DNA from: Tequatrovirus LF73P3
Strand: one strand, 5' to 3'
Sequence record: OZ035756.1
Length of the DNA: 64,000 nt
The position numbers and the translations under genes are program-made. The notes beneath the pieces were generated by a model, which made no database searches, was not told the DNA's origin, and saw only the letters and a program-made list of their open reading frames with translations. Positions within the stretch are counted from its first letter, which is position 1, and the number at the start of each line of letters is the position of its first letter. This document shows positions 3,814 through 63,724 of this stretch, one piece after another.

Positions 3814-5138
3814 TTGATTTCCTCTAAATCTTTGGTGTATTCTGTAACTACATCAGTAGTTTTCCAATATTCGTTTTCTTCTTTTTTAGCTTTAGCTTCT
3901 TCAGCAAGTTTCTTTGCTTCGTCGGAAGTCATATGAAAAATATTCATTCCAACTAGTTTATCAACATAAGAAGAATACATATCAATTTTAGAAAGTTCTT
4001 CGGTCAGTTCTTTGCGAGTTTTACCTTGTACAACAATTTCACCTGAAATTACTTTCTTAATGAAATGTGCCTTGGCAAAGGCTAAACGAAATGCTGATTC
4101 AGTTTCTTTGATTTTGTTATCAATTCGTTTTTGGACATAAGTTTTACGAACTTCAACGAAGTCTTTGATTAAATCAACTACGTTATCGTAAACTTGTAGT
4201 TTTCCTTTCTCATTAATAACGGTAATATTCTGGGAACGACGCTCAATCAACCCGAAGTCTTTCATAATTTTTGCATGGCGTTCTTCTTCGTTATCGCTTA
4301 AGGAATATTCTTTACGGAATTTAACTTTGAAGCCAAAACCATGCTCACCGCAAGCATCATCCCACGTAATGAAACCTTTATCTTCAAGCGGGTCTAAGAT
4401 TTTACTCACATAAGTTTCACGATCATACTTATACGGAATCTCAGTGATATGCATTTGAGTTCGTGAAGTAAACTTGTACGTTCCACGAATTTCATATTGA
4501 CCGTCAATTTCAACGACTTCACCGCGAAATTCTGGAAATTCTACCTTCGGTTTAGTTACTTTCTTTCTTTGAAGAGCTTGCAATACAGCTTTCTTGACAG
4601 AAGAAACACTATGAGGAAGAATATAAGTTGCATAACCAGTTGCAATACCGGAAACACCATTAAGAAGAACAGTAGGAATAATAGGCAAATAGAAAGCAGG
4701 CGGAATGTGTTCTTTATCTTGATGTACCGGAGCATATTCAGTATCTTTATATACGCTATAGAAATTTTTACTTACACGAGCAAAAATATAACGACTTGCC
4801 GCTGCTTTTTGAACGGTACGAGAACCAAAGTTTCCTTGACCATCTAACAGAGGAAAGTTATTATTCCAAGTATTAGCCATCAAAGCACCTGCGTCTTGTG
4901 CAGAGTTTTCACCATGATGATATCCAAGGTCTGCTACACCACCTGCAATAGAAGCGAGTTTGTGAAACTTATCTTTATTTCCTCGTGCCAAATCAAGAGC
5001 TCGAGCAATAACAAATCGTTGAACTGGCTTAAATCCATCAATCATATTTGGGATAGCACGATTTTCAACCGTGTACATAGCATAAGCCAATGCTTCGTTA
5101 TCAATGATACTTTTTAAATCGCGATTATTCAGTTGCAT
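3810..5138 (-). CDS. 52: DNA topoisomerase II medium subunit gp52
   Basis: 442 aa, GyrA-like N-terminus (PVQRFVIARALDL...), identical length to T4 gp52. Confidence 0.9.
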   Translation of the reverse strand: MQLNNRDLKSIIDNEALAYAMYTVENRAIPNMIDGFKPVQRFVIARALDLARGNKDKFHKLASIAGGVADLGYHHGENSAQDAGALMANTWNNNFPLLDGQGNFGSRTVQKAAASRYIFARVSKNFYSVYKDTEYAPVHQDKEHIPPAFYLPIIPTVLLNGVSGIATGYATYILPHSVSSVKKAVLQALQRKKVTKPKVEFPEFRGEVVEIDGQYEIRGTYKFTSRTQMHITEIPYKYDRETYVSKILDPLEDKGFITWDDACGEHGFGFKVKFRKEYSLSDNEEERHAKIMKDFGLIERRSQNITVINEKGKLQVYDNVVDLIKDFVEVRKTYVQKRIDNKIKETESAFRLAFAKAHFIKKVISGEIVVQGKTRKELTEELSKIDMYSSYVDKLVGMNIFHMTSDEAKKLAEEAKAKKEENEYWKTTDVVTEYTKDLEEIK

Positions 5139-6258: not shown

Positions 6259-6373
6259 AATTCACCTCAGGAAGTATAAAATCCAAATGCAGTTGTTGAC
6301 CATCCCATCCAATACGGAAAATTTGCACCGACGTAAAACATGAGAATATAAAACCAACCACTCAATAAATTCA

Positions 6374-6592
6374 TCATTTTACACCATTCCAAATTGTTTC
6401 AACCACAGATTTTAAGCCATTTTGATGAATGTCCATTCCGACAACTGCCATCAAATAAATTCCAACTACAACTGAACCTAAGGCAAAAATCAGCATGAAA
6501 ATGAATAAAGCCGGAAAAATATTATCGAAAAACCATTCAATAAATGTAAAAGCACTGCGTTTACGCTTCATATTTTCCTCACATAAATCCAA
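6374..6592 (-). CDS. hypothetical membrane protein (72 aa)
   Basis: two predicted hydrophobic helices. Confidence 0.4.
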   Translation of the reverse strand: MDLCEENMKRKRSAFTFIEWFFDNIFPALFIFMLIFALGSVVVGIYLMAVVGMDIHQNGLKSVVETIWNGVK

Positions 6593-6692
6593 AGTAAGCG
6601 TTTAATACATCAATCATTAAAACGATTGGGAATATACTCAAAACTACTAGTATTATAACTACATTCCATATAGCTTTAACAATCTTTTTCAT
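6579..6692 (-). CDS. small membrane peptide (37 aa; track ORF trimmed to first ATG after promoter)
   Basis: ATG at 6692 preceded by SD GGAGG within the conserved cassette leader; track start lies upstream of the promoter. Confidence 0.4.
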   Translation of the reverse strand: MKKIVKAIWNVVIILVVLSIFPIVLMIDVLNAYFGFM

Positions 6693-6717
6693 TTTCTGTT
6701 CCTCCGTAGTTGATAGG

Positions 6718-6750
6718 ATAATAATACCACAGAGGAACAGTCTTGTAAAC
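6718..6750 (-). promoter_or_regulatory. Early sigma70-type promoter (GTTTAC -35, TATTAT -10); near-identical copy of the cassette at 58000..58029
   Basis: minus-strand GTTTACaagactgttcctctgtggTATTATTAT. Confidence 0.55.
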
Positions 6751-58436: not shown

Positions 58437-59405
58437 TTATTTCAGAAGAGTAACCTCAGCGATTTCTTGCCAACCGTTTTTGTCGGTCATAATAAAGTCA
58501 GCAAGATAAAGAGCAGTACGCAGTGAAACATTGCGTAAACGATTAACATTAACTTTCATCCATGATAATGCTTTATAAGTTTCTTCATCAGAAAGACCGC
58601 GCTTTTGCATCATGTCAGTTGAAAGAATAACATCTTCAACCCTGACCATAATTTCTTCATTAGTGTGAACACCCAAATCCAAATAAACCGAGCGGGACAC
58701 TAATGCTTGTAAATGTGGAGCAAGTTTAGTACCACGGTCTAATTCGCGGTCAATGTCAACGTTTGTGATAAAAACAATCGTTCCTTTAAATTCAAACTCA
58801 CGGTCAATGCCTTTTTCTTCTAAGTAAGAAGATGCAGTGCTCCAGCAGACTTTACGGGTCTCTCCAGTGTCCAGAGCAGCTTTTAGAAGATTAAGAATGT
58901 CCATATCAGAGAAAACATCCACATCATCAATCAAAAGGACAGAATTCTCTTCACGATTATTCCAAAGCTGCTCATAAAGACCAATACCAGAGATTTTACC
59001 ATTAATGCTTTTATATTCAATGTATCCGTTATCATTTGCTTTATTTAAAGCTTTATCTAAAGAATACGTTTTACCAATACCTGCTGCGCCAGAGATAATT
59101 AATGAACGAATATTTCCATTAATAATACCATTCGTCATCATTCCCATAACATTAAATCTTTTATTAATGCGGGTTTTCATATCTTCATATGATTCTTTAA
59201 CTTCTTCAACTTTTACACCATCATATGAAATATCTGATTTGTAAACCCAAACACCGCGACGTTTACCGTCAATTTCAACAAAAACTTTACCATCTCCTTG
59301 TGCATCTACCGGAGCATTATCTGGGAACCATTCGCCTAAGAGCTCAAAAGTTCCAGAGATTTCTTTACCGAAGTAGATACCCTTATTGATAGTTACAGTT
59401 TTCAT
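58437..59405 (-). CDS. AAA+-type P-loop ATPase (about 322 aa)
   Basis: Walker A GAAGIGKT, Walker B LLIDDVD, sensor-like FITNVD; ATG at 59405 with SD GGAG. Confidence 0.6.
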   Translation of the reverse strand: MKTVTINKGIYFGKEISGTFELLGEWFPDNAPVDAQGDGKVFVEIDGKRRGVWVYKSDISYDGVKVEEVKESYEDMKTRINKRFNVMGMMTNGIINGNIRSLIISGAAGIGKTYSLDKALNKANDNGYIEYKSINGKISGIGLYEQLWNNREENSVLLIDDVDVFSDMDILNLLKAALDTGETRKVCWSTASSYLEEKGIDREFEFKGTIVFITNVDIDRELDRGTKLAPHLQALVSRSVYLDLGVHTNEEIMVRVEDVILSTDMMQKRGLSDEETYKALSWMKVNVNRLRNVSLRTALYLADFIMTDKNGWQEIAEVTLLK

Positions 59406-59474
59406 TTTATTCTCCAATTTCACATTTGTTTTGATAGGGTAATAGTATCACACTACTACCCTACTGTAAACAAT

Positions 59475-59738
59475 TTATTTTAATGTTTGCCAAATTTTTA
59501 CTGCTTCGCGACGAGATACTTCTACAGCTCCAAGTTCTACGGCTTTTTGGCGTCGGCGAGCATGTAAGTCATAATGTTTAATGCGTTTATCTTGAAACCA
59601 AGAACGTTTCATTCCTATTGCTTCTGCCATTTTATGAAGCTCTTCAATATCTCCATCAGTGAACATATGACAATTTTTAGTTGGATGACCGCGAAGTTTC
59701 CATCCATGATTCATTAAAACATCTACGTAAACTGTCAT
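59475..59738 (-). CDS. small conserved protein, DUF4031-like (87 aa)
   Basis: MTVYVDVLMNHGWKLRGHP...HYDLHARRRQKAVELGA pattern. Confidence 0.5.
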   Translation of the reverse strand: MTVYVDVLMNHGWKLRGHPTKNCHMFTDGDIEELHKMAEAIGMKRSWFQDKRIKHYDLHARRRQKAVELGAVEVSRREAVKIWQTLK

Positions 59739-59884: not shown

Positions 59885-59919
59885 TTTATTCCCCCAAATC
59901 CGTATCAGTTGATAGTTGT

Positions 59920-59949
59920 ATAGTACCACAGTATGCTTTGGTTGTAAAC
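59920..59949 (-). promoter_or_regulatory. Early promoter cassette (GTTTAC, TGGTACTAT)
   Basis: minus-strand GTTTACaaccaaagcatactgtggTACTATACaactatcaactgatacgg. Confidence 0.6.
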
Positions 59950-59968
59950 CGTTTTGTGAAAAAAATTT

Positions 59969-60000
59969 TGAAATAAAAAAGGGGACCTTAGAGGTCCCCT
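59969..60000 (-). terminator. Rho-independent terminator (GGGGACC-loop-GGTCCCC plus U-run)
   Basis: 7-bp GC stem followed by UUUUUUAUUUC on minus strand, directly after stop at 60010. Confidence 0.7.
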
Positions 60001-60009
60001 TGCGTTAGT

Positions 60010-60495
60010 TTATACCATTTCTATTATGTGCATATTCTTTTTGCTGTCAAAATATATGCTTTTAACTGTTAACTCAGAATTAATTGGCAGTAAAAACTCT
60101 CTTTCATAATCTACCATACAAAGATTATCATAAAGTTTGTTAAGCTTATCATCATCAGTTTGACCAGATTCTTCAATTGCGATTAAATTTTCTAAAATGT
60201 CAATCATGGCAGTCGAATAGTCAAAAACGTTTGCATTTTTTAACACTACTAAAACATTAGTCATATAGCGTTCTGCAGCAAACGTTTCAGCTATATGAGA
60301 CTCACTGCTAAAGGAAGTTATTCTTTTAAATTTGATTCTCCTATTAACTTCAAACTTATAAGATAGCACTTCCTCTATTGTAAGTCCTCTAAAAAGTATG
60401 TCTTTAATCTCAAGTTTGTCTTTAATGTAATCATTAACACGCTTATGATTAAAATCATTAATTTTGTTGCCAAGGCATTGCATTAAAATATGCAT
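60010..60495 (-). CDS. putative ADP-ribosyltransferase-fold protein (R-S-E class, ModA/ModB-like), 161 aa
   Basis: motifs LFRGLT, SFSSES, YEREFLLP with spacing like ModA (WRG/SAS/EQEVMIP) and ModB; SD GAGGA. Confidence 0.5.
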   Translation of the reverse strand: MHILMQCLGNKINDFNHKRVNDYIKDKLEIKDILFRGLTIEEVLSYKFEVNRRIKFKRITSFSSESHIAETFAAERYMTNVLVVLKNANVFDYSTAMIDILENLIAIEESGQTDDDKLNKLYDNLCMVDYEREFLLPINSELTVKSIYFDSKKNMHIIEMV

Positions 60496-60542
60496 TGTAT
60501 TTTCCTCAATTTTTAAAGAACAATTAACTAACTTACAAATAT

Positions 60543-60572
60543 ATTATAATATGCTTTGCGGTAGAAGTAAAC
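60543..60572 (-). promoter_or_regulatory. Early promoter (GTTTAC, TATAAT)
   Basis: minus-strand ttGTTTACttctaccgcaaagcatATTATAATat. Confidence 0.55.
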
Positions 60573-60588
60573 AACTTTGTGAAAAAAT

Positions 60589-60620
60589 TTTGAAATAAAA
60601 AGGGAGCCCGAAGGCTCCCT
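60589..60620 (-). terminator. Rho-independent terminator (AGGGAGCC-UUCG-GGCUCCCU plus U-run)
   Basis: 8-bp stem with UUCG tetraloop followed by UUUUUAUUUC. Confidence 0.7.
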
Positions 60621-60621
60621 A

Positions 60622-61635
60622 TCATTTATAATAACTTCGATGGTTTTCAAGATAAACCCTCTCAAGGAAGTCATCCCAGAAACCCATGTCTACTTTTTGC
60701 TGCATACCGTTCTTAGAAGCTTCAATGGATGCTGCTTCTACTTGATCGACCACATCTTCCAAAAACTCTTGAACAGTTTTAAATGGATGTTTACCCAACT
60801 TCACGTCGAGAATAAATGGAGCGTCTTGAAGTGGATAGACTAAGTCACCAGTTTTGTAAATTTCCAATAGTTGGAGTCCACCACGGCAAGCATGACTCAG
60901 AGCTTTCCAGTCAATGCCCTCATTCGCTTCAGCCTTACGAGCACGTTCGCCGTATTCAGCATCAAGTTTATTCAAAGATTGCTTAAGCTCGATAAGAGAA
61001 AGCGTTGTCTGATATTTACGACCCAACACAGTGTAGAACGTTTGTGGACCTGTTTTCTCATGATTATGGAACACCCATTCACAGAATTCGTTCTCTGGAA
61101 GACGATGCTTAATATCTTCAATCTTAGTTCGACGTTGCTTAATGGAACCGTCTTCTTGATAATCAACCCACTGATCAGGGATTTGATTAACTACTTTCAA
61201 TACATCACGTAATGCGGCCAAACGAGAACCCTTAACACCGTATTTAGAAGCTTGCTTGCGAACATATCCTAAGTAGGATTTCATGTTAGTCGTATAAAAA
61301 CGAGAACGATTGTCTTGAATAAACTTCCATACATCAGGCAAATCAGATTTAACTACCAGTTCAGGTGGAGTGTGGAGCATATCCAATGCTACAGTTTCAC
61401 CATCTGCTGCTAATTTAAAGAAATACTTAAGACTGTATAGTTCATGGTCAATATCATCTTTAGTGTTTTTAGATGATGTGTTGTTAGTGTTTTTACTCAT
61501 ATGCTCTTTAACATTTCCGATAAGAATATCACGAGCAGGAGGAACAAAGATTTCTTTAAAATCTACATCAGATTCTGGAGTAGAAGTTCCATAAAGATGA
61601 CTACCAAAATAGCTTTTCATTACTGTTTTCATCAT
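60622..61635 (-). CDS. Pol-beta-superfamily nucleotidyltransferase-fold protein (337 aa)
   Basis: N-terminal YFGSHLYGTSTPESDVDF fits the G[SG]x(9-13)DxD NTase signature; helical C-terminal domain. Confidence 0.5.
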   Translation of the reverse strand: MMKTVMKSYFGSHLYGTSTPESDVDFKEIFVPPARDILIGNVKEHMSKNTNNTSSKNTKDDIDHELYSLKYFFKLAADGETVALDMLHTPPELVVKSDLPDVWKFIQDNRSRFYTTNMKSYLGYVRKQASKYGVKGSRLAALRDVLKVVNQIPDQWVDYQEDGSIKQRRTKIEDIKHRLPENEFCEWVFHNHEKTGPQTFYTVLGRKYQTTLSLIELKQSLNKLDAEYGERARKAEANEGIDWKALSHACRGGLQLLEIYKTGDLVYPLQDAPFILDVKLGKHPFKTVQEFLEDVVDQVEAASIEASKNGMQQKVDMGFWDDFLERVYLENHRSYYK

Positions 61636-62117
61636 TCAGCCTTATATTCAATAACAGGACATACTTTAGCTTTACGCGCTTTTAAAAATTCGACGATAAT
61701 AGATTTCTTGGGTTGAATAGGCTCAAGTCCATTTTTGATTCGTTCTTCGTTTTGTACAATGAGCTCAATTTCTTTATTGAGCTTTCGGTCGTTATATTTG
61801 TCTAACAACCAGGAAGGACCAATTACCGCCCCGACAGCAATAAGAACCATGACCGATAATGCTAAAATGCCTATACCAATTGAAGCTGGAATTAATGTCC
61901 ATAGACTACTAAAGACAAAGAATTTAATTAAAATTTCTTGGCCAATTATTGCAGCACCTGTTAAAGTTGCAAATCCAACAATTGAAACCGCTAATACCGG
62001 GAGAAACGTTTTCCAAAAATAAGCACATAACGTTTTTGGACGATTCCATGTGCTGTTAAATGCCGAGTAAATTTTAAAGTGCCAAGAGTTTTCATTAATA
62101 ATCATAATTATAATCAT
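61632..62117 (-). CDS. hypothetical membrane protein (161 aa, 2-3 TM helices)
   Basis: hydrophobic core FLPVLAVSIVGFATLTGAAIIG... and ILALSVMVLIAVGAVIG; 4-nt overlap with both neighbours. Confidence 0.5.
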   Translation of the reverse strand: MIIIMIINENSWHFKIYSAFNSTWNRPKTLCAYFWKTFLPVLAVSIVGFATLTGAAIIGQEILIKFFVFSSLWTLIPASIGIGILALSVMVLIAVGAVIGPSWLLDKYNDRKLNKEIELIVQNEERIKNGLEPIQPKKSIIVEFLKARKAKVCPVIEYKAE

Positions 62118-62635
62118 CCTTTCATTGAAGGTGTAACAGTTGTTAAATACTTAATCATAGCTTCAGCTTCTGATTTTGATAATGAAATTTCTCCATTGTT
62201 TTGACGAATAGAAATAAAATCCGGATGACGGTCACCACCAGCTTTTAAAACACACATATAAGTATCAGTTTCATCTTCAATATCTGAAATGATTGAAGCA
62301 GTTCCACATGAATGTGGTTTTTGATAAATCAATACAGCTTTTCTTCCACCGTTTGACTGCTCATAAACTTTTAACACATCAAACAAATCACTTCTTTTAT
62401 CAATAGCTAAGATGTTGTTTTCATCTTCAATGTTAAATCCTTCGGATACTTCATAAAGTGTCACCCATAAATCACCAATATCAATAACAGCGTTCACTTT
62501 TCCATGACTTTCAAGAGCATTACAAATTTTCTTAATTTCATCATAACTCATTTTAATAATATCATCTCCTTGAATAAAGAAGATGTCATTTTTAAATTCA
62601 ACGCGAATTAAACCACTTTCACTTGAAATAAACAT
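62114..62635 (-). CDS. hypothetical protein (173 aa), paralogue of next gene
   Basis: shared C-terminal pattern EAEAMIKYLTTVTPSM vs EAIALKTYLDSVIPTM. Confidence 0.5.
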   Translation of the reverse strand: MFISSESGLIRVEFKNDIFFIQGDDIIKMSYDEIKKICNALESHGKVNAVIDIGDLWVTLYEVSEGFNIEDENNILAIDKRSDLFDVLKVYEQSNGGRKAVLIYQKPHSCGTASIISDIEDETDTYMCVLKAGGDRHPDFISIRQNNGEISLSKSEAEAMIKYLTTVTPSMKG

Positions 62636-62641
62636 ATTTCC

Positions 62642-63199
62642 TCACTTTGAAATCATAGTTGGAATGACAGAATCAAGATAAGTCTTTAGCGCAATAGCTT
62701 CGTCTTTGGTAAATGTGACAATATATGAACGAAAATCATCAATTTGACGAATAGTTAAGACATCTCCATCTTCATAACATTTTGATACATTTAAAACAGT
62801 TTCATCATTTTGATTGCAAGCGTTAGTAATAATAGCATTGCAATTTTTGAGCCATTTTAAACTATGTTTTCTTTCATTAGAATAATAAAAATATTTAATC
62901 TTATCTATAAAACTATCCCAATGGATAACTGATAAACACATTGACTCACTTTTAATATTAAATCCTGGGCATGAAGAATAAAAATGAATTTTGTGCTCAT
63001 CATTGATGCTTACTATTTTATCAGTATAAGGATATTCTATTTGGATTAAATGAATGATTTCACTAGGCGTAAAATATAGCATATCGTCTTCTTGCGTCAA
63101 ACGATACATGTTATTTACTTTTTCTATAGCCAATTCACCAAAAAGCGGACTAACTTCTAATACTAATCGTTTCATATTGATTCTCTTCGACTCACTCAC
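62642..63199 (-). CDS. hypothetical protein (185 aa), paralogue of previous gene
   Basis: first gene of a four-gene translationally coupled operon. Confidence 0.5.
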   Translation of the reverse strand: MSESKRINMKRLVLEVSPLFGELAIEKVNNMYRLTQEDDMLYFTPSEIIHLIQIEYPYTDKIVSINDEHKIHFYSSCPGFNIKSESMCLSVIHWDSFIDKIKYFYYSNERKHSLKWLKNCNAIITNACNQNDETVLNVSKCYEDGDVLTIRQIDDFRSYIVTFTKDEAIALKTYLDSVIPTMISK

Positions 63200-63334
63200 A
63201 ATTACATACTCCTTTGAATAATATCAATAATGTTGTTCACCAGATTATAAGTAAACATTGGATAATTATATTGAATCATCACATACACAACAAACAAAAC
63301 TTTCATTCTCTTCTCCTTGGCAGTTGACAAGATT

Positions 63335-63364
63335 ACTATATCATAACCTTGCCAACTTGTAAAC
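63335..63364 (-). promoter_or_regulatory. Early promoter (GTTTAC, TGATATAGT) for the 63199-60622 operon
   Basis: minus-strand GTTTACaagttggcaaggttatgaTATAGT. Confidence 0.5.
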
Positions 63365-63529
63365 CATTAAATGACGTTTTCAATAAAATTCTGAAGCTTT
63401 GTGTGAGCATCAACCATGATTTTCATTTCTTCCTTTGCGAAAGCTGTACCTCTTTCTCGAGCAGAATACTCATAGTCAGAAACTGCATTAGCATATTCTT
63501 CAATTAGCTTCATTAAAAACATCTGCTTT

Positions 63530-63724
63530 TCAGTTTTCATTATTCCACCTAATCATTTCAAGATATTGAACTAACTTAGCTTTGGATTTATCCAAATCCT
63601 TTTTAGCTGCTTCTATACCATCGTATGAGTATCCTTCACAATGCTCAACTGCTAATTGATATGAATCTATTTCAACATCACGTGCTAATTTAATAATTTT
63701 TTCAAACTGTTCACATGTTAGCAT
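63530..63724 (-). CDS. hypothetical protein (64 aa)
   Basis: six-frame ORF. Confidence 0.4.
   Translation of the reverse strand: MLTCEQFEKIIKLARDVEIDSYQLAVEHCEGYSYDGIEAAKKDLDKSKAKLVQYLEMIRWNNEN

Follow-up and report, generated by a model that had tools for sequence, protein, structure and literature searches.

The early operon around nrdC.11 in Tequatrovirus LF73P3 and a probable RNA 3'-end-extending role for its RlaP-family nucleotidyltransferase

The locus considered here lies in a window of 64,000 nucleotides from Tequatrovirus LF73P3 (sequence record OZ035756.1), and the Tequatrovirus identity of the window was seen in a search in which the DNA of the region was matched in 688 phage records, with 80% or more of its length covered in 366. 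The region is present at 90-99% identity in hundreds of sequenced phages, and annotated orthologues of its genes include T4 MobD.1 and T4 NrdC.11; the operon is one that has already been well sequenced, and the finding is real but mostly ordinary. The four ORFs listed in a preliminary description of this DNA are all present on the minus strand at the coordinates given there: mobD.1 (62642..63199), a second gene of the y05I family (62114..62635), a membrane protein gene (61632..62117) and nrdC.11 (60622..61635), with intergenic spacings of +6, -4 and -4 nt along the series. These four genes stand as members of the operon, but the count of four does not, as a gene of 34 aa, mobD.2 (63202..63306, minus strand, MKVLFVVYVMIQ...), had been missed. 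It is the first gene of the unit, located between the promoter and mobD.1, and carries the name MobD.2 in the annotations of T4 and ACG-C40; its product is 100% identical to that of BW-1 and 91% identical to that of T4.

A shared early promoter and a closing terminator had also been proposed, and both were recovered as predictions. The putative promoter (63335..63363, minus strand) is of the T4-early sigma-70 type, with TTTACA, a 17-nt spacer, TATAGT and a TG upstream of the -10 element (extended), and as a consensus match only it agrees with the consensus at 10 of 12 positions. The predicted intrinsic terminator (60592..60620, minus strand) is strong, with a GC-rich stem of 8 bp that is capped by a UUCG loop and followed by a U-run; folding of its hairpin GGGAGCC-UUCG-GGCUCCC, which together with the U-run was placed at 60620..60601, gave -18.4 kcal/mol (z = -3.56). 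Because a scan of 59900-63600 revealed no terminator upstream of the promoter, read-through from upstream is possible. The ART-like gene, which was placed next to the last gene in the preliminary description, has a promoter and a terminator to itself and does not belong to this unit. By comparison of sequences, the operon corresponds to the early unit mobD.2-mobD.1-...-nrdC.11 of T2/T4-like phages and is situated in their accessory region nrdC-mobD, which is nonessential; in T4, nrdC.11-mobD.3 is deletable.

The products of mobD.1 and the following gene had been described as paralogous, which was confirmed by their identity of 27% (E = 1e-8) and by the presence in both, above threshold, of the Pfam domains PF24449 and PF24448 (T4_y05I_N and T4_y05I_C). 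MobD.1 matched these domains with 133 bits (E = 6e-39) and 74 bits (E = 1e-20), and the paralogue, a protein of 173 aa, with 115 and 83 bits, respectively. The start of mobD.1 is ambiguous, being either GTG 63199 (185 aa) or ATG 63175 (177 aa), and the homologues start at ATG 63175; the protein is 85% identical to T4 MobD.1. The paralogue was detected in 448 phage records, nearly all of them of Tequatrovirus, and clustering of its sequences at 90% identity left no more than 12 groups. "Putative transcription factor", as applied to y05I, is a mere Pfam name. The AF2 model of y05I, built from an alignment of 11 sequences, reached a pLDDT of 41, comparison of the y05I profile with PDB sequences returned noise only, and a literature search for "y05I" retrieved nothing relevant. 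The order y05I, membrane protein, nucleotidyltransferase (NTase) was seen repeatedly in several Tevenvirinae genera. That a y05I relative always lies upstream of the membrane gene was ruled out: the small gene just upstream is such a relative in Jiaodavirus alone (E = 1e-10, C-terminal domain).

The membrane protein belongs to the phrog_944 family (E = 1e-50). Its hydropathy profile shows an unbroken hydrophobic core at residues 30-107 with room for 2-3 TM segments, in agreement with the 2-3 TM protein described before. The start of the gene may be ATG 62117 or 62105, of which the latter is likely, as homologues begin there. Both the N-terminal motif MIINxNSWH...LCxYFWK and the basic C-terminal tail ...KARKxKVCPxIE are conserved, and residues W12, C31, Y33, F34, W35, K146, K149, K151, C153 and P154 are invariant across Tevenvirinae, Pakpunavirus and ICP1. 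The protein matched no domain of Pfam, NCBIfam or PADLOC, and an adjacent effector with a nucleotide-sensing domain, as expected for CBASS-type cGAS/CD-NTases, was not recognized.

Homologues of the membrane protein were found by tblastn in 1194 phage records, and in Tevenvirinae and Pakpunavirus they are encoded beside RNA repair genes. In the Pakpunavirus RNA-repair cassette (e.g., Pseudomonas phage JG005), a homologue of about 31% identity with the same N- and C-terminal motifs is located directly upstream of an RNA-end-processing enzyme, as in the window; the cassette differs in that the genes around the homologue encode an Rnl1-type RNA ligase, an AAA_33 kinase and a Metallophos phosphoesterase as well as, upstream, an HTH protein, and in that neither an RlaP nor a y05I gene lies within 6 kb of the membrane gene in the loci fetched. 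A general link between the membrane protein and RNA repair was rejected, because in ICP1, Aeromonas phages and four metagenomic lineages the neighbours are other genes, which encode dNMP-kinase-like, pyrophosphohydrolase, DprA-like, primase, RNR, methyltransferase or function-unknown proteins. There is a low probability that the phrog_944 protein works together with enzymes that process RNA ends, being coupled to the RlaP NTase in Tevenvirinae and to the Rnl1 ligase/kinase cassette in Pakpunavirus; it might then tether or gate RNA repair at the membrane or form with NrdC.11 a Hailong-like membrane device controlled by an oligonucleotide.

The T4 mobD.1-mobD-nrdC.11 locus and the window agree in their flanking genes, mobD.2, mobD.1, nrdC.11 and nrdC.10, and in the orientation of these. 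In T4, however, the HNH homing endonuclease gene mobD lies between mobD.1 and nrdC.11, whereas the window carries the y05I paralogue and the membrane gene at this site and, in addition, has two genes, the ART-like one and one of the DUF4031 family, that separate nrdC.11 from nrdC.10. Recombination is concentrated in the slot that lies between mobD.1 and nrdC.11, which in the window holds a duplicated y05I gene and the membrane gene. The membrane-gene allele of the window is a recombinant, with a central part that came from a different lineage. Based on sliding-window DNA identity, the segment 61720..62110 (minus strand) is only 40-65% identical to the otherwise nearly 100% identical relative BW-1, whereas its identity to the allele of another Tevenvirinae lineage (L008) is 80-90%, and the C-terminal 30 residues of the protein are identical to those of the Tequatrovirus allele P0341.

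The preliminary description treated the four genes as a coupled set that should occur together in related phages, and their distribution contradicts such a fixed module. By tblastn the four distributions are nested and unequal, as the NTase occurs in 1517 phage records, the membrane protein in 1194, mobD.1 in 726 and the paralogue in 448, and in T4 both the paralogue and the membrane gene are missing from this position. T4 (over 44-61 kb), phiAS4, GAP161 and phiM19 encode the NTase with no membrane gene close to it, and the membrane gene occurs without an NrdC.11-type NTase within 6 kb in the fetched loci of Pakpunavirus, ICP1 and Aeromonas phages. The two y05I paralogues and the membrane protein are best seen as syntenic early-gene neighbours of nrdC.11.

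NrdC.11, a protein of 337 aa that is 98% identical to T4 NrdC.11, belongs by its sequence to the RlaP family of Pol-beta nucleotidyltransferases. It scored 43.8 bits against Pfam PF10127 (RlaP; cutoff 23, E = 3.4e-11), with a match that spans profile positions 23-142 of 249, that is, the N-terminal half only. In a diverse set of relatives with 34-54% identity, 43 of 43 sequences matched PF10127 (best E = 2e-19) and no other family, and NTP_transf_2 scored just 14 bits with NrdC.11. The N-terminal GS...DVD signature noticed earlier is present as G11-S12 and D23-V24-D25. Conservation of the catalytic carboxylates, which had been named as a check, was evident in the same 43 sequences: D23 and D25 of the DxD motif and a third aspartate, D63, are invariant together with G11 and S12, while conservation reaches 90% or more at D61 and D85. 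The AF2 model (pLDDT 93.3) comprises an NTase domain (~1-115), a helical C-terminal domain that contains a beta-rich insert (~155-209), and a terminal helix, and the catalytic residues sit on the strands expected. The best PDB matches of the model were Pol-beta-fold NTases, and all of them were weak (Foldseek E at least 6e-3, TM at most 0.41); the closest solved structure was Hailong HalB (PDB 9dbh), and other neighbours were kanamycin and lincosamide NTases, DrrA, GlnE and MNT. Sequence and profile searches of PDB chains, a set that does not contain the PfRlaP structure, detected no similarity to NrdC.11, and PADLOC and NCBIfam gave no match for any of the four proteins. The Pol-beta NTase fold proposed before was thus upheld, and the cGAS/CD-NTase and MNT-toxin readings attached to it were not. 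For a cGAS/CD-NTase, there was no PADLOC match and no cGAS-like structure among the matches listed. As for an MNT toxin, MNT-HEPN systems pair a minimal NTase of about 100-150 aa with an adjacent HEPN protein, whereas NrdC.11 is a two-domain enzyme of 337 aa with a fused helical domain, its neighbours are not HEPN proteins, and MNT is a weak fold match only.

The RlaP family was recently characterized in Pseudomonas, and T4 NrdC.11 was assigned to cluster 5 of the PF10127 similarity network (PMC12776372, a 2025 preprint). It was reported that PfRlaP and PaRlaP add 1-2 NMPs to the 3'-OH ends of RNA, favour a cleaved-tRNA mimic, at its broken anticodon-side end, and are inactive on DNA and protein; they show little NTP or RNA specificity, and with total E. 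coli RNA they labelled species of rRNA, tRNA and cleaved-tRNA size (PMC12776372). Three aspartates are strictly conserved, and PfRlaP begins with an NTase domain, continues with a helical one and ends in a helix that packs back on the NTase domain (PMC12776372). Restoration of nucleotides ahead of ligation was predicted as the role of RlaP (Iyer et al., 2021), and in bacteria and jumbo phages an association of RlaP genes with RNA ligase genes is known; the authors of the preprint nevertheless report unresolved difficulties with the repair model (PMC12776372). NrdC.11 resembles these enzymes in passing the PF10127 threshold and in its GS, DxD and third Asp. Its AF2 model has the order of NTase domain, helical domain and terminal helix described for PfRlaP, with the beta-rich insert in addition. 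It differs from them in that the assayed enzymes belong to cluster 1a, in that its C-terminal half lies outside the Pfam match and carries a beta-rich insert unlike the bacterial enzymes, and in that it is not encoded beside RtcB/RtcA or any ligase in the window. Neither the window nor its T-even relatives have a ligase, kinase or phosphoesterase gene in or beside the operon. An orthologue of NrdC.11 is flanked by two annotated RNA ligase genes in Sinorhizobium phage phiM19. The neighbourhood of RlaP and ligase genes is a tendency of the family and not a strict requirement.

By analogy with the two bacterial RlaPs, NrdC.11 probably extends RNA 3'-OH ends in the course of tRNA repair and so serves in counter-defence; that it acts on RNA, takes part in tRNA repair and counters a host defence is what we infer from that family. 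The enzyme would add one or two nucleotides, untemplated, from NTPs to the 3'-OH of broken RNAs, and would act alongside the unlinked phage healing and sealing enzymes Pnkp and Rnl1/Rnl2. Together they could restore tRNAs that were cut and trimmed by host anticodon nucleases, especially those of the RloC type, and NrdC.11 would thereby be a counter-defence accessory. The anti-defence module suggested by the preliminary description is hence plausible in the form of RNA-end repair, but its signalling variant is not retained.

Other assignments of the nucleotidyl transfer were weighed against this one. NrdC.11 might act on RNA 3' ends for another purpose, for instance mending of tRNA CCA ends or tailing of transcripts that alters the stability of host or phage RNA during takeover. 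The broad labelling of E. coli RNA by RlaPs and their low specificity for NTP and RNA are consistent with this, as are the predicted early-type promoter of nrdC.11 and its separation from ligase genes in T-even phages; it is made unlikely by the association of RlaP with RNA ligase genes in bacteria, jumbo phages and phiM19 and by the preference of the assayed enzymes for the broken anticodon-side end. A target other than RNA is distinctly unlikely, be it a host protein that would be adenylylated, such as a HEPN-type RNase inactivated in the manner of MNT antitoxins, or a small molecule as for KNTase/ANT/Lnu-like enzymes. The nuclease domains of PrrC and RloC are classed as HEPN, and this, with the kanamycin/lincosamide NTases, DrrA, GlnE and MNT among the structural neighbours, speaks for such a target. 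These structural matches are all weak, however, NrdC.11 and all its relatives match RlaP alone in Pfam, with NTP_transf_2 at the low score given above, and the bacterial RlaPs left proteins and DNA unlabelled (PMC12776372).

The pairing with the membrane protein raises the further idea of a unit like Hailong HalA/HalB, which would work as an exclusion or signalling device or as a decoy that holds a host channel closed. According to a review, the product of the Hailong NTase is an oligonucleotide by which a membrane protein is gated or regulated. The membrane gene does precede the NTase gene with a 4-nt ATGA overlap, the two are adjacent or within 3 small genes of each other in Tequatrovirus-, Mosigvirus- and Jiaodavirus-type loci and in phage 133, and the strongly basic, conserved and predicted cytoplasmic tail of the membrane protein could bind nucleic acid. 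Yet NrdC.11 is an RlaP at the sequence level and shows no detectable sequence-level similarity, profiles included, to HalB or any PDB chain, and PADLOC returned no match. HalB has 217 aa and synthesizes DNA as protein-primed poly-dA, whereas NrdC.11 has 337 aa; the phage protein in the place of HalA has about 155 aa. Moreover, the obligate pairing of Hailong does not apply to the phage genes, which lie apart in many genomes, the NTase alone in T4, phiAS4, GAP161 and phiM19 and the membrane gene alone in Pakpunavirus, ICP1 and Aeromonas phages. The membrane part recombined while the NTase remained 99% identical, which argues against tight co-adaptation. A Hailong-like unit is very improbable.

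The y05I proteins, the very widespread membrane protein and the exchange of its central part are modest leads from this locus. The idea that NrdC.11 restores nucleotides is already in the literature. If NrdC.11 does restore the nucleotides that "smart" anticodon nucleases such as RloC remove, the enzyme would complete the classic T4 tRNA repair pathway of Pnkp and Rnl1, and it would explain how T-even phages might escape a defence that was thought to defeat repair.

The operon ending in nrdC.11 lies, like all features of the window described here, on the minus strand. It is composed of four large ORFs, mobD.1 (62642-63199), a second y05I paralogue (62114-62635), a membrane protein gene (61632-62117) and the nucleotidyltransferase (NTase) gene nrdC.11 (60622-61635), spaced in this order by +6, -4 and -4 nt. 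A predicted T4-early-type promoter (63363..63335; TTTACA-17-TATAGT, extended TG), recognized by sequence match, is located upstream, and an intrinsic terminator of textbook form (60620..60601; GGGAGCC-UUCG-GGCUCCC and a U-run; free energy -18.4 kcal/mol, z = -3.6 against shuffles) lies downstream. Since ORFs, spacing, promoter and terminator were found as claimed, the four-gene anatomy of the preliminary description is correct with one omission, mobD.2 (63202-63306). This gene, between the promoter and mobD.1, encodes a 34-aa protein with a hydrophobic N-terminus (MKVLFVVYVMIQYNYPMFTYNLVNNIIDIIQRSM), 91% identical to its T4 counterpart and 100% conserved among close relatives. No terminator was detected 5' of the operon promoter in the region scanned, and read-through from the mobD.5-mobD.2a genes is therefore possible.

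The NTase scored 43.8 bits (cutoff 23) against the Pfam family PF10127 (RlaP, "RNA repair pathway DNA polymerase beta family"). Relatives recovered by exhaustive HMMER searching fall into 3420 clusters at 50% identity; E was below 1e-30 for 828 clusters, most of which matched over the full length, and all 42 diverse relatives analyzed (34-54% identity) matched PF10127 and no other family. In the alignment of these relatives G11, S12, D23, D25 and D63 are invariant; these residues make up the Pol-beta signature and a third carboxylate. The AlphaFold2 model is confident (pLDDT 93.3): an alpha/beta NTase domain at the N-terminus is followed by a long C-terminal helical domain, which a beta-rich insert (about residues 155-209) interrupts, and the chain ends in a helix. 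Foldseek against the PDB ranked Pol-beta-fold NTases at the top, all weakly (E >= 6e-3): the 3c18 NT-like protein, Hailong HalB, kanamycin/ANT(4') NTases, LinB, Tam41 and MNT. Profile, motif, model and fold matches together uphold the Pol-beta fold proposed from the N-terminal GS...DVD motif, and the membership of NrdC.11 in RlaP is well supported by sequence.

The preliminary description had also listed cGAS/CD-NTase-like enzymes and MNT toxins as possible kin. No cGAS/CD-NTase structure occurred among the listed Foldseek matches and PADLOC returned no match for the NTase, so that a CD-NTase identity was rejected; an MNT identity was likewise rejected, MNT appearing only among the weak Foldseek matches. 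Sequence and profile searches of the PDB recovered no related chain, the PfRlaP crystal structure evidently lying outside the copy searched. By sequence and motif NrdC.11 qualifies as an RlaP, but the gene neighbourhood expected of that family is not found at its locus in the window.

Two Pseudomonas RlaPs characterised in a preprint of December 2025 (PMC12776372) attach one or two NMPs to RNA 3'-OH ends with any NTP or dATP as donor, act preferentially on the broken end in a mimic of cleaved tRNA, are inactive on DNA and on protein, and can make over-trimmed tRNA chargeable again once it has been ligated; T4 NrdC.11 is explicitly placed in cluster 5 of the RlaP similarity network (PMC12776372). 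It was predicted that phage RlaPs act ahead of the ligation step, putting back nucleotides that RloC-type nucleases have taken off (Iyer et al., 2021). Based on family, motif, structure and this literature, NrdC.11 is best read as an RNA 3'-end nucleotidyltransferase, a substrate and role that we infer: it would add nucleotides at RNA 3' ends in support of phage tRNA repair, and this repair would serve as counter-defence. In phage phiM19 two annotated RNA ligases flank the NrdC.11 orthologue, an arrangement not seen in the T-even phages examined. T4 is viable with nrdC.11-mobD.3 deleted.

The membrane protein claim is borne out by a hydrophobic core at residues 30-107. The protein belongs to phrog_944 and had no match in Pfam, NCBIfam or PADLOC. 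It is spread far more widely than the y05I genes, occurring in Straboviridae of many hosts, Pseudomonas Pakpunavirus, Vibrio ICP1 and a Yersinia jumbo phage; an N-terminal motif (W12...C31-x-YFW) and a basic C-terminal tail (K-x-x-K-x-K-x-CP) are invariant across these lineages. Co-occurrence of the four genes held in part. Within Tevenvirinae, the order y05I-type gene, membrane gene, zero to three small genes, NTase is shared by loci of the Tequatrovirus, Mosigvirus and Jiaodavirus types and by two further IMG/VR loci (L008, L009), but the phage record counts are unequal (NTase 1517, membrane protein 1194, mobD.1 726, second paralogue 448) and the genes are also found apart. Acinetobacter phage 133 carries two membrane-protein paralogues (3934-4416 and 6339-6737 of locus L034), one on either side of its NrdC.11 orthologue, and phiAS4, GAP161 and phiM19 have the NTase with no membrane gene nearby.

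In Pakpunavirus the membrane gene is preceded by an HTH gene and followed by genes for an Rnl1-type RNA ligase and an AAA_33 kinase, with a Metallophos phosphoesterase upstream, apparently a split RNA healing-and-sealing cassette; in Pseudomonas phage JG005 (1443-5267 of locus L006) the order is Metallophos phosphoesterase, small gene, HTH protein, phrog_944 protein, ligase and kinase. The JG005 ligase is annotated as a tail fibre attachment catalyst. Proximity to RNA-end enzymes in two unrelated lineages is suggestive, but the association is not general: in ICP1 and other lineages the genes beside it belong to nucleotide or DNA metabolism or are of unknown function. The adjacency in Tevenvirinae may be no more than inherited synteny. 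In comparisons with close relatives, phage BW-1 for example, the membrane protein is only 55% identical and the flanking proteins 97-100%. Sliding-window DNA comparison delimited a central block (~61720-62110) in which identity is 40-65% to phages that otherwise match at ~100%, and 80-90% to the allele of a different Tevenvirinae lineage, one with an NTase of only 79% identity. Over its last 30 codons the gene keeps the resident type, and alleles at least 95% identical to that of the window occur in only 9 of the 1194 records. These features indicate that the membrane-spanning part was swapped by recombination between conserved ends; its exchange beside an unchanged NTase argues against tight co-adaptation of the two.

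The two upstream proteins are paralogues, as proposed: both contain Pfam T4_y05I_N and T4_y05I_C and they share 27% identity. "Putative transcription factor" is a Pfam label only, and the predicted structure (pLDDT 41) is too low in confidence for the fold to be read. Clustered at 90% identity, the second paralogue yields only 12 protein clusters, and its records are almost all >90% identical, which marks it as a recent duplicate of narrow distribution. The metagenomic protein P0131 is a hybrid whose N-terminal domain is that of mobD.1 and whose C-terminal domain is that of the second paralogue; it looks like a deletion via recombination between the tandem copies. The T4 order is mobD.1, mobD (HNH homing endonuclease), nrdC.11; in the window the mobD slot is instead filled by the second mobD.1-family copy and the membrane protein gene. 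The identities of mobD.2, mobD.1 and nrdC.11 were taken from records with T4-based gene names. GenBank entries of relatives are systematically mislabelled, NrdC.11 orthologues often being named "thioredoxin" or "HNH homing endonuclease", and MobD.x proteins [quoted passage not shown] or "helicase loader".

Downstream of nrdC.11, the gene for a ModA/ModB-like ADP-ribosyltransferase (60010-60495; phrog_832, E = 6e-24) forms a separate unit, running from a promoter of its own (60571..60543) to a terminator (60001..59979). R36 in LFRGL, SFS and E-R-E were read in it by eye; T4 lacks the gene at the corresponding position, and it is split into two annotated pieces in BW-1. A DUF4031 gene (59475-59738; PF13223, E = 1.6e-21), between it and nrdC.10, is a further variable insert of the region, found in some relatives (ACG-C40, L010, L012) and missing from T4 and BW-1. 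The P-loop protein NrdC.10 (58437-59423) had only sub-threshold AAA and STAND NTPase matches (best nSTAND3, 22 bits; cutoff 27).

Matches to the 3.1-kb operon region occur in 688 phage records, almost exclusively Tequatrovirus, with identity reaching 98%, and the NTase is 99% and 98% identical to its T2 and T4 counterparts. The operon is already known, since its genes are in hundreds of database genomes and the NTase family is in Pfam and the preprint. Its remaining value lies in the RlaP repair model, easily testable by T4/T2 genetics, and in the very widespread membrane protein and the y05I proteins.
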